A stretch of DNA of 64,000 nucleotides. Origin: Dehalococcoidia bacterium (GTDB taxonomy: Bacteria; Chloroflexota; Dehalococcoidia; GIF9; AB-539-J10). Position numbers and translations under genes: made by a program. The stretch's first letter is position 1; every line of letters starts with the position of its first letter. The stretch covers positions 101,492-165,491 of the forward strand of contig JAUWOR010000003.1 in NCBI GenBank assembly GCA_030612025.1, read 5' to 3'. The notes under the pieces are model-generated. The model ran no database searches. It had not been told where the DNA came from and was given only the letters and a program-made list of their open reading frames with translations. Below are positions 58,158 through 64,000 of the stretch, in pieces.

Positions 58158-58234
58158 CGGGGCGTAGCGCAGTGTGGTAGCGCGCAGCGTTCGGGACGCT
58201 GAGGTCGGAGGTTCAAATCCTCTCGCCCCGACCA
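58158..58234 (+). tRNA. tRNA-Pro(CGG)
   Basis: Acceptor stem CGGGGCG/CGCCCCG, anticodon arm CAGCG-TTCGGGA-CGCTG, GTTCAAATC, encoded CCA. Confidence 0.97.
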
Positions 58235-58252
58235 AGAGAACGGAGAGAAACT

Positions 58253-59332
58253 ATGCTAAAAGCCGCAATCGTGGGAGCCACCGGCATCGTTGGTCAGCAA
58301 TTTCTCGTTGCCCTGAAAAACCACCCCTGGATTGAAATTGCCGCACTTGCCGCATCCGAGAGGTCAGCCGGCCGCAGCTATAAAGAGGCCATAACCGAGG
58401 CTCAATCCGGAGCCCTGCGCTGGTTTTGCCAAGAGCCGCCGGTAGAAGAAGTTATGGGAATGCCAGTGCAGAACGCCGCCGAAATGGATATCTCTGCCAT
58501 AGACCTCGTCTTCTCCGCTATAGAATCCGCCCCGGCGAAGGTTCTCGAACCGAAGTTTGCTAGTGACAAACCGGTTATAAGCACCGCTTCAGCCTTCCGC
58601 TACGATGACGATGTACCCATTCTGATCCCAGGCATCAACTCCGAGCAGGCCAAACTGCTTCATGTGCAGAGAAAATCGCGGGGATGGAAGGGCTTCATTA
58701 CACCCATTCCCAACTGCACCACCACCGGCCTGGCAATATCACTAAAGCCAATCTACCAGACCTTTGGTCTAAACGCTGTCGTAATGACCTCCATGCAAGC
58801 TATATCAGGCGCAGGTCGAAGTCCTGGAGTGTTAGGCCTCGATATTCTGGACAACGTCATTCCCTTCGTTCCCGGAGAAGAAGAAAAGGTGCAGCGCGAA
58901 ACACAGAAAATCCTGGGTAGTTTTGAAGGCTCTTCAATCAGTCCGGCGAGATTCGATGTAAGCTGCACCTGCACCCGTGTTAACGTACGGGAAGGGCATA
59001 CAGAATCGGTCTTCGCCTCTACCCAAAAAGCTTGCCAGGTAAGCGATGTTGCCAGGGCAATGAGGGAATTCGTCGGCTCAGCCGCTGAAGCTGACCTGCC
59101 TTCGGCCCCGAAGCATATGATAATCGTGCTCGATGACCCCTTCAGGCCTCAGCCACGGCTAGACCGTGATGCCGAAGACGGCATGGCCACCGTGGTCGGT
59201 AGAATCAGGAAGGACACTGTCCTGGAAAATGGCATCAAGTATGTTCTGGTGTCCCATAATACCAAGATGGGAGCTGCTAAAGGCGCAGTTCTTGTAGCTG
59301 AACTCCTTATCCGGGACGGATATATCTCTTAG
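58253..59332 (+). CDS. asd: Aspartate-semialdehyde dehydrogenase (archaeal/eukaryote-like subfamily)
   Basis: [46 protein letters not shown]. Confidence 0.93.
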
Positions 59333-59335
59333 ATA

Positions 59336-59370
59336 CTGAGGCCGAAGGTTCAAACCCTCTCGCCCGACCA
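59336..59370 (+). repeat. Degenerate tRNA-Pro 3' copy 1 (att-like)
   Basis: ctgaggccgaaggttcaaaccctctcgcccgacca vs tRNA ctgaggtcggaggttcaaatcctctcgccccgacca. Confidence 0.85.
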
Positions 59371-59379
59371 GAAGAGGGT

Positions 59380-59520
59380 TATTACCTAAGCCATTCCTCC
59401 CTGGTGACTCCTGCCCTCTTCAAAATCCGCGATAGAAGAGCAACTCCGATCTCTCTGCAGCAGAAACTCAGTCACCGACTTCTAAAGTTTTGAGTTCTTC
59501 TATTCTATGTTCACCTATAG
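59380..59520 (-). pseudogene. Internally deleted hicA/hicB remnant paralogous to 62986-63451
   Basis: cctaagccattcctccctggt...agagcaactccgatctctct and caccgacttctaaagttttgagttc match the 3' ends of the intact hicA and hicB. Confidence 0.8.
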
Positions 59521-59679
59521 TTGGTAAGATAAGTTCTGGTAAAAAAGGTTTCGGAATCCCGATAGTCAATAGGTCCTCTTTGTAAAAGTACGTCTCCTAA
59601 GTCAGCAGCGAATACTGCCTCATCTGGCTTACCTTCGCCTATATCCTGTGTGGTTTAGCAACCTGCCACCATGGTTCAT
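59521..59679 (-). pseudogene. Frameshifted N-terminal fragment of a DUF499 AAA+ ATPase
   Basis: With two frameshifts reads M(K)PWWQVAKPHxDIGEGKPDEAVFAADLGDVLLQRGPIDYRDSETFFTRTYLT. Confidence 0.7.
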
Positions 59680-60026
59680 CTCTCACCCCCCTCTAACTCT
59701 TCTAAAACTTTGTTAATCAGAGGTTTAACCTGTGGAATAACGTCTTTTATAGTGTTCCAGACAAGGTCATACTTCACGCCAAAGTAGAAATGAATGAGCC
59801 TATTCCTCATTCCTGCCATGTCTCTCCAGGGAATAGAAGTGTATTTTTGTTTAATGTCTTCCGGAACACTCTTGGCAGCTTCCCCAATGATTTCAAACTT
59901 CCTTATTACGGCGCTTAATCTCATGTCGTCATTTTTGAAAGTTGCAAAGTCTATCCCTTCTGCAAATCTCTCGATAGCTTCCATAGCTTCTAAGATATCT
60001 TTCAAAAAAAGCTTAGGGTCTCTCAT
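59676..60026 (-). CDS. hepT: HepT-like (DUF86/HEPN) RNase toxin
   Basis: FEIIGEA, IPWRDMAGMRNRLIHFYF (RX4HXY). Confidence 0.9.
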   Translation of the reverse strand: MRDPKLFLKDILEAMEAIERFAEGIDFATFKNDDMRLSAVIRKFEIIGEAAKSVPEDIKQKYTSIPWRDMAGMRNRLIHFYFGVKYDLVWNTIKDVIPQVKPLINKVLEELEGGER

Positions 60027-60334
60027 AAATAAACTGCCTCTTTTAGAACCTGTTCTTTAATTTCCTCTCGAACAGTATCAATGGGAACAATATCCACCTT
60101 CGTATTGAGTTTTTCCTCAAGGAAGTCCCCAAGACCAACAAGATCAAATAATGTAGCCCCCTTATGAAACTTCACCAAGATGTCCAGATCGCTACTTCCT
60201 CTTTGTTCCCCCCTGGCATAGGAACCGAACACTCCAATGATTTCTGCCTTGTATTCCTTTCTTATTTGCTCCTCTAAGCTTTTGAGAGTTTCTATGACTC
60301 CTTCAAGTTCCCTATTCACCGTATATTCCCTCAT
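60023..60334 (-). CDS. mntA: MntA-like minimal nucleotidyltransferase antitoxin
   Basis: FGSYARGEQRGSSDLD (GSX10DXD), KVDIV. Confidence 0.9.
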   Translation of the reverse strand: MREYTVNRELEGVIETLKSLEEQIRKEYKAEIIGVFGSYARGEQRGSSDLDILVKFHKGATLFDLVGLGDFLEEKLNTKVDIVPIDTVREEIKEQVLKEAVYL

Positions 60335-60514
60335 TTATATAATCGTTGGGCGAGCAATTTGCAATTTGCCACCATGGTTTCATCTTCTTCACCCCCTAAA
60401 ACAATTTCGCTTGTTGCCCCAATCCTTGCTCATTATAGCTTGATTGGCTCCTTGAGGACAACACGCTGTACTCGTCCACATGATTAGTGACACATCACCT
60501 CCTTTGTTGCTATC

Positions 60515-60645
60515 AGGCTGTTTAATTTTGATTCCCCGTTCAATTTCAGCCATCTCGGAGGTGTTTCACCCCCAAATTTTGTAGTTGCCTGATTTATCAG
60601 GCACAGTCGCCCAATAAATTGGGCGACTACATTTTTAAACAGCCT
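60515..60645. mobile_element. ~130-bp MITE-like element, copy 2
   Basis: Terminal inverted repeat AGGCTGTTTAA...TTAAACAGCCT; internal gtagttgcctgatttatcaggc / gcccaataaattgggcgactac. Confidence 0.75.
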
Positions 60646-62721: not shown

Positions 62722-62920
62722 CTCACCCCCTTAAAAGCAAATTTGATCCTGAAGCCTTAGCCTAAATTGGCATTCCCATTCTAGCACAAACCCAAGCGGC
62801 TGGCACTTTTTAAACAGGCATCGAACAATCGACAGAATAACCGCAAACGAGTTATGTAAACAGGCAGGACTAAAGCCTAAATTCTGATAAGTGAAACTGG
62901 GCAAGGGCATAATACAGGCT

Positions 62921-62978
62921 GCAGCGCACTGCGTTCGGGAGGCTGAGGTCGGAGGTTCAAATACTCTTGCCCCAACCA
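62921..62978 (+). repeat. Degenerate tRNA-Pro 3' copy 3
   Basis: gcagcgcactgcgttcgggaggctgaggtcggaggttcaaatactcttgccccaacca. Confidence 0.9.
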
Positions 62979-62985
62979 GCAAAGA

Positions 62986-63204
62986 CTACTGCCTAAGCCA
63001 CTCCTCTCTGGTAACTTCAGCTCGCTTTAAAATCCGAGCAAGAAGAGCAACCCCAATCTCTCTACGATGCGGATTGGGGATAGTTAACACCAAACTGCCT
63101 TTTATCATGTAAGGATGTTTCCCGCCTCGATAAGGCCCTTCAAATTCAAGCCCACGAAGTCGCCTTACTAGCTTTGTCCATGAAACAGGCGAAAGCTCAG
63201 CCAC
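62986..63204 (-). CDS. hicA: HicA family toxin
   Basis: LRGLEFEGPYRGGKHPYM...TIPNPH...LLARILKRA. Confidence 0.88.
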   Translation of the reverse strand: MAELSPVSWTKLVRRLRGLEFEGPYRGGKHPYMIKGSLVLTIPNPHRREIGVALLARILKRAEVTREEWLRQ

Positions 63205-63451
63205 CGACTTCTAAAGTTTTGAGTTCCTCTATTTTGTGTTCGCCTATGGCAGGAATGCCTAGTCCTTTTCTAAGCCTTACCACAAGCCAACCATCAATAA
63301 CCTCAGCTAAATTATGACGGCATTCCTCAAGTGTTTTACCCGTAGCCCACACACCTTCAAGCTCTGGAACCTCTCCATAGTATGGTTCCTTATCCTCAAT
63401 GATTTCATACCTTGCCCTATTAAGAGCGGCTTCAATGTATTGTGCAATCAA
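63197..63451 (-). CDS. hicB: HicB family antitoxin
   Basis: YYGEVPELEGVWATGKTLEECRHNL. Confidence 0.88.
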   Translation of the reverse strand: MIAQYIEAALNRARYEIIEDKEPYYGEVPELEGVWATGKTLEECRHNLAEVIDGWLVVRLRKGLGIPAIGEHKIEELKTLEVGG

Positions 63452-63576
63452 TTTTCCACCTCTTTGCTTAACTTCTCTTTACCTGCTAGAGGGATTTTTC
63501 ATACAAATGATATTGCTCACAATCATTTCCTAATCATTATAGCTCGAATGCTTACTAAATGACAATAAGTACCGCA

Positions 63577-63637
63577 TGTAGCAGCGCGCAGCGTTCGGGA
63601 CGCTGAGGTTGGCGGTTCAAATCCTCTCGCCCTATCA
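63577..63637 (+). repeat. Degenerate tRNA-Pro 3' copy 4
   Basis: tgtagcagcgcgcagcgttcgggacgctgaggttggcggttcaaatcctctcgccctatca. Confidence 0.9.
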
Positions 63638-63776
63638 GAATTCCTCAATTTAGCAGTTGACGCATTCTGCTATGATATCTTTTATAGTCCTACTCAGAAA
63701 CAAAACGCTAAAAAGTATGGTGACAAAGACTGTTACCACATTTTCCACCTAACAGCTAGGCAATGAAATAATGGCC

Positions 63777-63809
63777 TTGACTTCTGCAATATCACTCATT
63801 ATAATGAGC
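63777..63809 (+). promoter_or_regulatory. Sigma70 promoter with a palindrome over the -10 box (possible autoregulatory operator)
   Basis: TTGACT-17 nt-TATAAT; CTCATTATAATGAG is a perfect palindrome. Confidence 0.6.
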
Positions 63810-63838
63810 ATACACTCAATATTTAGAGTGAGGATAAG

Positions 63839-64000
63839 ATGCTTAACACTTACCTCATTAACACAGTCACCCAGAGGGTCATCAGCTTTCTTGCCAAGTT
63901 TTGCGATCAGGAATTTTATGAAAGGCAGATTGCCCAGAGGATTGGCATAGCTTATGGCTCAGCAAACCGAGCCTTAAATGAATTATATTCCACTGGAGCC
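63839..64000 (+). CDS. Winged-HTH protein (3'-partial), probably an HTH-nucleotidyltransferase antitoxin
   Basis: MLNTYLINTVTQRVISFLAKFCDQEFYERQIAQRIGIAYGSANRALNELYSTGA... Confidence 0.55.
   Translation, partial: MLNTYLINTVTQRVISFLAKFCDQEFYERQIAQRIGIAYGSANRALNELYSTGA

Follow-up and report, generated by a model that had tools for sequence, protein, structure and literature searches.

How did a row of toxin–antitoxin (TA) modules come to lie between partial copies of a tRNA gene, in a stretch of chromosome that holds no integrase? The question is raised by the right-hand end of a 64,000-nucleotide stretch of DNA from a Dehalococcoidia bacterium (the window; G000:C12:101492-165491, contig JAUWOR010000003.1 of assembly GCA_030612025.1), in which an intact tRNA-Pro(CGG) gene, the gene asd for aspartate-semialdehyde dehydrogenase and four tRNA-Pro fragments with small modules between them follow one another towards the last base of the window, which is also the end of contig C12. 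An earlier note, made from the letters of the window, had taken this locus for an integron-like array of cassettes, captured perhaps at attC-like tRNA fragments. With moderate confidence the locus is regarded here as a product of accretion, in which attachment-site scars have accumulated at an integration hot spot in a tRNA gene, and the TA and defence modules between them have outlived the small elements that carried them.

Marine sediments and cold seeps are rich in uncultured Dehalococcoidia, whose small genomes give few clues on gene exchange. The genome of the window (G000) comprises 1.40 Mb in 19 contigs and is 95.6% complete according to marker genes. G001 to G003 are genomes of the same genus; L0xx, metagenome or contig loci (L001 being contig C11 of G000, and L019 contig C2 of G001); X, metagenome runs; C, contigs of G000. 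Module identities are from Pfam unless stated otherwise. The stretch was found, as assembled contigs, in 23 metagenome runs labelled cold-seep, marine-sediment or subsurface metagenomes, four of which were analysed.

Co-oriented scars of tRNA-Pro(CGG)

The anchor of the array is the intact tRNA-Pro(CGG) gene (58158..58234, plus strand), called by ARAGORN and scoring 66.7 bits as an Rfam tRNA; no other Rfam tRNA match was obtained at E ≤ 1 in 57000-64000, and hence no scar scores as a tRNA. A 25-nt T-arm/acceptor probe with at most 3 mismatches matched five times in the window (58201, 59338, 61952, 62945 and 63605), always on the plus strand, at a chance expectation of 0.00 (100 shuffles); a repeat search of the window returned one five-copy family of 56 nt, with copies 63, 79, 84, and 93% identical to the tRNA. 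Decay of the scars is uneven over these 56 nt (63-93% identity). The layout described in the earlier note, an intact gene followed by four degenerate 3' copies in the same orientation, was thus recovered, the gene by ARAGORN and the copies by the probe scan and the repeat search.

Scar f1 (59336..59370, plus strand; tRNA positions 42-77) begins 3 nt past the asd stop codon; its blastn-short extent is 59336-59365 (positions 42-71, 90%), continued by eye to 59370 (position 77). Scar f2 (61936..61976, plus strand; positions ~27-68) is matched by blastn-short at 61944-61976 (positions 36-68, 94%), with the aligned anticodon stem starting at ~61936 and weak tRNA likeness 5' to ~61918. Scar f3 (62921..62978, plus strand; positions ~20/30-77) is matched at 62931-62978 (positions 30-77, 92%), and scar f4 (63569..63632, plus strand; positions 7-71, 91%), the best preserved, at 63583-63632 (positions 22-71, 96%). 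The extension of three copies back through the anticodon arm, also claimed earlier, holds for f2, f3, and f4. Two further scars in the same orientation are found at the start of contig C11 (406-465 and ~1862-1901). This contig very probably follows C12 after a short gap, because a homologue of C11:418-1893 in G002 (91.6% identical) lies inside a tRNA-Pro array on a single contig. Of the proposed search beyond the contig end for more copies and a terminal integrase, the first half thus succeeded; C11:1-15000 holds no integrase.

Twenty fragments from G000 to G003 were aligned to the tRNA. Most start at position ~27-28, where the anticodon stem has its 5' strand, and run to 70-77; a few extend into the D arm, and the three post-asd copies start at 42. 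The anticodon stem is broken in f2, f3, and the C11 scar C11a, and intact in f4. Families of left-hand and of right-hand flanks were recognized among the aligned fragments, in many combinations. In ten close metagenome loci, 21 of the 21 fragments listed are on the plus strand. A role of the fragments as functional RNA or terminators was considered and rejected, since they keep one orientation despite genes on both strands, their stems decay, and Rfam gave no match.

The conserved asd junction

The asd gene (58253..59332, plus strand; PF01118, PF02774) lies between the tRNA gene and f1. Adjacency of tRNA-Pro and asd was also found in G001, G002, G013, and G017; a tRNA fragment 2-3 nt past the asd stop codon is present in G000, G002, G011 (another genus), G006 (degenerate), and G038 (with three other genes between tRNA and asd), so that the junction of stop codon and fragment is common to four genera. 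A post-asd fragment was detected in 12 of 80 metagenome loci (E ≤ 0.01). Because the junction is conserved over four genera, asd as a recently captured cassette is rejected, and the single-gene cassette of the earlier note gives way to a conserved interval.

Judged from this conservation, the arrangement of tRNA, asd, and f1 is ancient. The scar downstream of asd could stem from an ancient island that brought asd, or from a second tRNA copy since lost. This type of asd has a scattered distribution in the class (found in 19 of 151 genomes, E ≤ 1e-20) and may have arrived on an ancient island at tRNA-Pro; the next-nearest homologues, at 63-67% identity, bear titles of other phyla and archaea. 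To find the far end of the array, the nitroreductase, CutA-like and amidase genes that lie past asd in G038 and L049 were used as markers; G000 has no syntenic copies of them.

Assemblies often break inside tRNA-Pro(CGG) or a few hundred bases past asd, in many genomes of the family and in metagenome contigs (for example G010, G011, G032, G048, G049, G091, L048, L052, L092, L103, L108), as would be expected if strains throughout the family vary at this site.

Modules between the scars

After asd, the intervals hold almost only TA pairs. HepT/MntA, the protease-like/DUF5678 pair, and HicAB are encoded on the minus strand and RHH/MazF (RHH, ribbon-helix-helix) on the plus strand, each as a complete two-gene TA operon. 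The gene names given earlier for asd, HepT/MntA, RHH/MazF, protease plus DUF5678, and HicA/HicB all agree with Pfam.

The interval from f1 to f2, earlier described as a mix of HepT/MntA, RHH/MazF, and remnants of about 2.5 kb, has that content and, in addition, a decayed hicAB copy, a hicA 5' remnant and a dispersed repeat. The decayed HicA/HicB remnant (59371..59537, minus strand) is a paralogue of 62979-63266 (direct repeats 75-80%; blastn 78-89%); together with f1, as 59336-59537, it matches 62943-63266. It is followed by HepT (59676-60026) and MntA (60023-60334), a HEPN/nucleotidyltransferase TA pair on the minus strand (59676..60334; PF01934, PF01909). Beyond the dispersed repeat a hicA 5' remnant (60862..60992, plus strand), 88.6% identical to C11:122-252, is fused to the RHH/MazF module, which consists of an RHH antitoxin (61069-61326) and a MazF/PemK toxin (61323-61637) on the plus strand (61069..61637; PF01402, PF02452). 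The junction of this remnant with RHH/MazF is also present in G002 (97%).

Between f2 and f3 an aspartyl-protease-like gene (62024-62473) is followed by a DUF5678 gene (62470-62721), both on the minus strand (62024..62721; Pfam), and a hicA 3' remnant (62813..62920, plus strand) lies directly 5' of f3; 62813-62962 is 76.7% identical to C11:318-456, which likewise comprises a hicA end and a fragment. Between f3 and f4, HicA (62986-63204) and HicB (63197-63451) form a TA pair on the minus strand (62986..63451; PF07927, PF21748), a unit of ~0.6 kb between two scars. Past f4 the helix-turn-helix (HTH) gene noticed earlier at the window edge is indeed present, and can be specified further as the 5' end of a winged-HTH nucleotidyltransferase (63839..64000, plus strand; weak HTH match), resembling MNT-type antitoxins and cut by the contig end. 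Its full-length homologue L054:1359-1928 matches PF18765/PF01909 and has a PF05168 HEPN gene as neighbour; since the HEPN partner lies downstream in relatives, the edge gene is taken as a member of another TA pair.

Integrases and a cognate element

No integrase is present in the array. In the whole of G000, PF00589 matched a 289-aa frame on C16, a 312-aa frame on C8, and an 87-aa remnant (C12:22779-22937), none of them in the array, and PF00239 (serine recombinase) had no match; a home-made integrase hidden Markov model found nothing in window positions 55001-64000 or in C11:1-15000. The absence of an integrase from the array, as stated in the earlier note, was therefore confirmed for the window and C11, and it extends to all of the 14 arrays compared (G000 to G003 and ten metagenome loci with asd at least 91.6% identical). 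The two full-length recombinases of G000 match XerD/XerC models best (266 and 196 bits); on the integron integrase model TIGR02249 they score 100 and 64 bits against a cut-off of 265, so that neither qualifies as IntI. The position of the Xer-like gene on C8, downstream of tRNA-Pro(TGG), is kept in G004, G009, and G038, as expected of a core gene.

A complete element of ~1.9 kb was found between tRNA-Pro(CGG) and asd in L067, a related population (asd 85.5% identical) outside the genus of the window. The order at 456-2440 is apgM, tRNA-Pro(CGG), a 71-aa open reading frame (ORF), a 110-aa membrane ORF, a PF00589 integrase, a tRNA fragment (positions 29-74, 98% identity) and asd; the integrase is encoded on the minus strand, and its reading frame runs into the right-hand repeat. 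The element is among the smallest integrase elements to be expected. It shows a canonical insertion event at tRNA-Pro(CGG) that leaves a fragment of the same type as the scars of the array. Its integrase has homologues in 44 of the 119 family genomes, spread over 12 of 20 genera. In five well-assembled genomes of the family, integrases adjoin tRNA-Pro(GGG) or tRNA-Pro(TGG), not tRNA-Pro(CGG); a tblastn search with four family integrases, covering the 12 kb downstream of tRNA-Pro(CGG) in 13 more genomes of the family, gave neither an integrase nor further fragments.

In G000 itself, 3' or 5' tRNA fragments were found near six other tRNAs, 0.6-9 kb from their genes: a tRNA-Met with three fragments within 9 kb and an integrase remnant among them (C12:16782-25620); tRNA-Arg(CCT) (C12:79217-86076); tRNA-Leu(TAA) with two fragments (C12:86846-91731); tRNA-Pro(TGG) (C8:55790-60025); tRNA-Lys(CTT) (C15:46770-51708); and a second tRNA-Met (C5:116313-120930). 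The remnant in the first tRNA-Met array, C12:22779-22937, is a C-terminal tyrosine-integrase piece. A second C-terminal remnant, which shares 57% identity with the C-terminal end of the L067 integrase, is located ~270 bp from tRNA-Leu(TAG) at C15:37897-38022. Between tRNA-Leu(TAA) and its first fragment is a unit of a small ORF and a MazF-like gene, named by eye with no Pfam run. From the scars at six other tRNAs and the remnants, small-scale insertion at tRNA genes followed by decay appears to be a habit of this genome and not an oddity of one locus. Insertion of very small elements at tRNA genes is then probably a main route by which defence and TA genes are gained and turned over in these genomes.

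Array variation among relatives

Multi-fragment arrays downstream of asd are confined to a close clade, namely G001, G002, G003, and metagenome loci: they were found in seven of ten metagenome loci with asd at least 91.6% identical, and in one of 70 (L059) with asd at most 89.4% identical. Relatives differ in cassette content and neighbourhoods, so that the identical gene order which the earlier note had named as a refutation of cassette shuffling is not what was found. Modules recur at 85-99% protein identity in different company. HicAB stands directly after f1 in L051, L056, and G003, and is followed by HepT/MntA in L056 and by a 91-aa ORF in L051 and G003; in G002, L054, and L055 the position after f1 is taken by HTH-MNT/HEPN. 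The intact HicAB after f1 in G003 is 92% identical to the decayed copy of G000 and 79% to its intact copy, and is on this evidence the positional orthologue of the decayed one. G000 and L053 are collinear over ~3.5 kb, with 60962-62826 (including f2) at 92-96%.

In G001 (L019:3880-8700) a 1479-bp unit, comprising a fragment and a 404-aa GNAT-like gene, is present twice with 99.26% identity. The left edge of the unit is the start of a fragment and the right edge the start of the next fragment; another unit lies between the two copies. HTH-MNT/HEPN precedes RHH-MazF in G002/L054 and succeeds it in G000/L053, an order difference that calls for at least one duplication or relocation. Units of scar, HicAB, and scar (~0.6 kb) have the same boundaries in two paralogous copies with different neighbours. 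The same scar type, C11b, is succeeded by a methyltransferase and a 914-aa gene in G000 and by BrxC/D-type ATPases in G003.

Variation was also seen within samples. Contigs of the cold-seep runs X1 (7549 nt, from window position 61748) and X4 (1935 nt, from 61237) follow the window to 62885, depart from it ~35 nt before f3, cross 36 letters that fit the intact tRNA (58192 on) and enter other DNA; two variants thus appear to meet near f3 in these samples. In X1, window 63320-63969 is on a separate contig of 650 nt; the cover of 62886-63319 in X1 is thin or absent and was not used as evidence. Since X1 may be the source sample, it does not count as independent support. Runs X5 and X11 gave only 200-700-nt pieces of single modules, uninformative on order. 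The joint of 62885 to 58192 was rejected as a circle or tandem junction, for it has 36 letters on the tRNA side, and is read as another tRNA-like fragment followed by other DNA; in the assembled contigs of the four runs no circular junction was seen.

Origin of the array

Most likely the array is a structure of a known kind, the worn-down and reshuffled remains of repeated insertions by small elements, rather than a new integron-like machine. Each fragment would be an attachment-site scar, left when a tyrosine integrase placed a small integrative element with a tRNA-like attP in tRNA-Pro(CGG) or in a scar already present. Recombination would be centred on the anticodon stem-loop, so that the duplicated piece spans ~position 27 to the 3' end. 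The elements would later have lost their integrases, or never have had any; what persists between the scars would be what resists deletion in a streamlined 1.4-Mb genome, namely HicAB, HEPN/MNT, MazF/PemK, and other defence genes. Remodelling would have proceeded by recombination between co-oriented scars and between paralogous TA genes, by ordinary deletions and by insertion of dispersed repeats, and close relatives, though sharing these modules, would for this reason differ in which of them they hold or have duplicated and in what lies beside each.

The anticodon-stem starts of the fragments, the L067 element, the scars at six other tRNAs, the uneven decay, and the conserved asd junction support such accretion. 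That all scars were made by integrases, that TA addiction explains retention, and that mobility of the units has ceased or become rare, are three suppositions that go with it. If the units were not mobilised in trans, the locus would be a clean natural example of addiction modules outliving the mobile elements that brought them. A viral origin of the modules has no support: the tRNA 3' pattern, sought by exact matching, did not turn up on viral contigs, nor did relatives of the protease-like protein or of HicB.

Several points weigh against this origin. The array lies downstream of asd, not between tRNA and asd as in a canonical insertion; f1, nearest the tRNA, is the oldest and f4, the farthest in the window, the freshest; from this order of ages and the post-asd position, insertions must have used internal scars or a second tRNA copy that was lost. 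A pure graveyard of elements would be expected to keep some integrase remnants, as the tRNA-Met array does, and neither an integrase nor a remnant of one was found in any of the 14 arrays; homologues of the L067 integrase were found in none of the five genomes of the window's own genus (E ≤ 1e-15). The recurrence of the HicAB unit and the duplication in G001 are more easily reconciled with mobility of whole units than with random erosion. All genomes compared are metagenome-assembled, and the window's last 1.1 kb, for which two or more variants may co-exist, could represent a minority path. Under the accretion reading some interest is retained by the small, densely packed units with their almost exclusive TA cargo, by 14 arrays free of any integrase trace, by the G001 duplication, and by the odd placement past asd.

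The alternative that survives best, itself unlikely, is a working integron-like platform, in which the scars (at least intact ones such as f4) are live sites and single TA modules of 0.6-1.5 kb, as integrase-less circles or minimal cis-mobilizable elements, are moved by a tyrosine integrase acting in trans. Units would then be excised, re-inserted, duplicated, and exchanged between cells, with the integrase supplied by a transient element or phage; this part, too, is judged doubtful. Equally tentative is its more specific form, in which the circulating units are integrase-less minicircles of one TA or defence module with a near-complete pseudo-tRNA attP, served by a tRNA-specific tyrosine integrase in trans or possibly by a host Xer-type recombinase, which would make the locus an attC-independent, tRNA-based analogue of a chromosomal integron in streamlined sediment Dehalococcoidia. 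A trans source is conceivable, because the L067 integrase uses tRNA-Pro(CGG) and leaves the same type of fragment; cognate-type integrases are present in the family, and other tRNA-targeting integrases in the genus. Further points speak for a platform: content differs among close relatives although no integrase is found in the 14 arrays; the G001 duplication (1479 bp, 99.26%) is bounded exactly at the 5' edges of two fragments, with another cassette between; left and right flank families of the fragments occur in many combinations; HicAB units of constant boundary stand beside different neighbours; HTH-MNT/HEPN changes sides relative to RHH-MazF; and contigs of two runs leave the window ~35 nt before f3 through a tRNA-like piece.

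Set against these are the positions at which rearrangement occurred. Of 32 distinct alignment ends, eight lie no more than 50 nt from a fragment (13% expected; P=0.053), a marginal enrichment from a crude test, as blastn alignment ends are non-independent and several reflect local divergence rather than rearrangement; clear, sharp junctions lie away from fragments at 59520/59521, 60862-60866, and C11:227-252. Anticodon stems are broken in many scars, the assembled contigs showed no circular junction, viral contigs yielded neither the cassette proteins nor the tRNA 3' pattern, and deletion and duplication, starting from a longer common array, can account for much of the variation in order, indeed for most of the variation. 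If mobilisation in trans were true, it would represent a second, independently evolved cassette system beside integrons.

A second alternative is quite improbable as a full account: after a few founding insertions no site-specific enzyme would have been involved, and the array would have changed by RecA-type recombination among scars and among paralogous TA genes, by illegitimate deletion, and by import of DNA from relatives, anchored on tRNA, asd, and f1. The flank of tRNA, asd, and f1, at 91-93% DNA identity within the genus, could serve as such an anchor. Repeats extend past the tRNA part, as in the f1/hicAB direct repeats and the repeat of hicA plus fragment, and many breakpoints fall inside TA genes. 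In G003, asd is 99% identical to that of G000 on one contig and its 3' end on the next contig 92% (DNA), which hints at recombination or strain mixing within asd. The uninterrupted identity between scars, however, is only ~20-30 nt, short for efficient homologous recombination, and the unrelated cargo after the same scar (methyltransferase and 914-aa gene in G000, BrxC/D in G003) is left unexplained.

An artefact of assembly or binning, in the form of a contig chimeric over repeated tRNA-like sequence from different strains, is very improbable: the last 1.1 kb is represented in X1 only by the separate 650-nt contig, the 7.5-kb contig departs at 62885, and many related assemblies break at tRNA-Pro(CGG) or just past asd, yet like-built arrays were obtained independently in three other genomes and eight metagenome contigs, and the fragments differ in sequence and have distinct flanks.

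Comparison with described systems

Integrons have the integrase IntI, attC sites that are imperfect palindromes with R and L boxes, and mostly promoterless, co-oriented cassettes expressed from a common promoter. The present array resembles sedentary chromosomal integrons and clusters of attC sites lacking integron integrases (CALINs) in having short units between repeated sites, a content rich in TA genes and variable, and, as can occur there, no adjacent integrase. It differs in having sites that are tRNA copies, self-regulated operons on two strands, no IntI and no identified attI or cassette promoter (Pc). The repeats align to the tRNA gene over their full length and do not qualify as attC, the R box having been compared by eye only and with no covariance model; the modules, as complete operons on both strands, do not have the organisation of integron cassettes. 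The resemblance to integrons is one of analogy, and as an analogy it has partial support. Of the integron-like array first proposed, real tRNA direct repeats that delimit TA-rich units of one or two genes remain; membership of the integrons does not, whether by integrase, sites, or cassette organisation. The fragments themselves, decaying tRNA copies with eroding stems that separate self-contained TA operons on both strands, with no integron integrase, were not upheld as attC-like sites, and a new integron-like capture system is not established.

Insertion of elements at tRNA genes reportedly follows a scheme of three sublocations set out by Williams in 2002. In Islander, 2083 of 3919 tRNA gene (tDNA) islands are anticodon-centred and 1836 use the T-stem region; an integrase and at least 2 kb are required per unit, and four arrays of at least three units are given for 2168 genomes (PMC4383910). 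As in the Islander tandems so described, an intact tRNA is accompanied by co-oriented 3' fragments at unit ends, the layout is anticodon-centred and the content variable among relatives; unlike them, the present array has six scars in ~8 kb, units of 0.6-2.6 kb and no integrase, and starts past a housekeeping gene. It has the features of a tDNA array (intact tRNA with co-oriented fragments; variable accessory content, save asd; an existing cognate integrase, in L067), without the integrase per unit on which the Islander filter insists. Given these demands, arrays like the present one are filtered out by design, and standard island finders that ask for an integrase and at least 2 kb per unit would miss them.

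For the tandem ssrA islands of Dehalococcoides, 20-bp repeats are described, and 15 islands without an integration module were suggested to be cis-mobilizable elements (CIMEs) moved by accretion (PMC3146451). Also described are a 540-aa serine recombinase at ssrA, large rdhA islands and 16 islands that retain the integration module (PMC3146451). The earlier note was right that Dehalococcoides stacks islands at ssrA; its view that such islands are normally large and carry their own integrase is qualified by these integrase-less, att-bounded tandem units. Likenesses to the ssrA genomic islands are the class of organism, tandem units, repeats of a small-RNA 3' end, the lack of an integrase in some and variability among strains; differences are the use of tRNA-Pro(CGG), repeats of 35-65 nt, the tyrosine-integrase type, the absence of a serine recombinase from the genome, and the TA cargo. 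With tRNA-Pro repeats and no PF00239 match in the genome, the array does not belong to the islands integrated at ssrA by the serine recombinase DsiB. It does agree with CIMEs, its units lying between att-type sites, encoding neither integration nor transfer, and consisting of TA pairs by Pfam. On excision in trans by the integrase of a related element, the other trait of CIMEs, the variant junction near f3 and the G001 duplication bear only indirectly, and the assembled contigs showed no circle.

Tycheposon islands of Prochlorococcus provide the third comparison; these tRNA-adjacent islands are stacked elements separated by partial tRNAs, with fragmented integrases (10.1101/2020.12.28.424599). 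Tycheposons themselves are said there to have a tyrosine or large serine recombinase, often replication genes, and nutrient-uptake cargo (10.1101/2020.12.28.424599). Shared with these islands, as portrayed there, are the streamlined genome, the position next to a tRNA, scattered partial tRNAs and degenerated elements, and heterogeneity within populations; the present arrays differ in having no recombinase or replication hallmark gene.

Further modules and dispersed repeats

The protease-like/DUF5678 module occurs in 2 of 119 genomes of the family and in the metagenome locus L053. The protease-like gene (149 aa) overlaps that of the DUF5678 protein (83 aa) in a TA-like two-gene form, and in the second of the two family genomes the identity drops to 39%. 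The two genes may constitute an addiction or defence system not described so far.

Contig C11 opens within hicB and continues with hicA, a fragment, HTH_17/PemK, a 91-aa ORF, and the second fragment; past these come a DNA methyltransferase, a protein of 914 aa that matches no Pfam family, and AbiEi paired with AbiEii. At L001:2063-6412 the N6/N4 DNA methyltransferase is flanked by ORFs of 80 and 73 aa, after which comes the 914-aa protein. The methyltransferase/914-aa cluster may be a restriction or other defence system.

The dispersed repeat at 60465..60743 (no strand assigned) is ~130-210 bp long, resembles miniature inverted-repeat transposable elements or repetitive extragenic palindromes, and occurs dozens of times in G000, on 13 or more contigs, one copy lying beside tRNA-Leu(TAA) at C12:87193-87325. 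Short dispersed repeats of the same kind are also found at 57936-58169 and ~61700-61800. All three stretches have very high summed contig depth in the four metagenome runs, which suggests that repeats related to them are common in many organisms of these samples.

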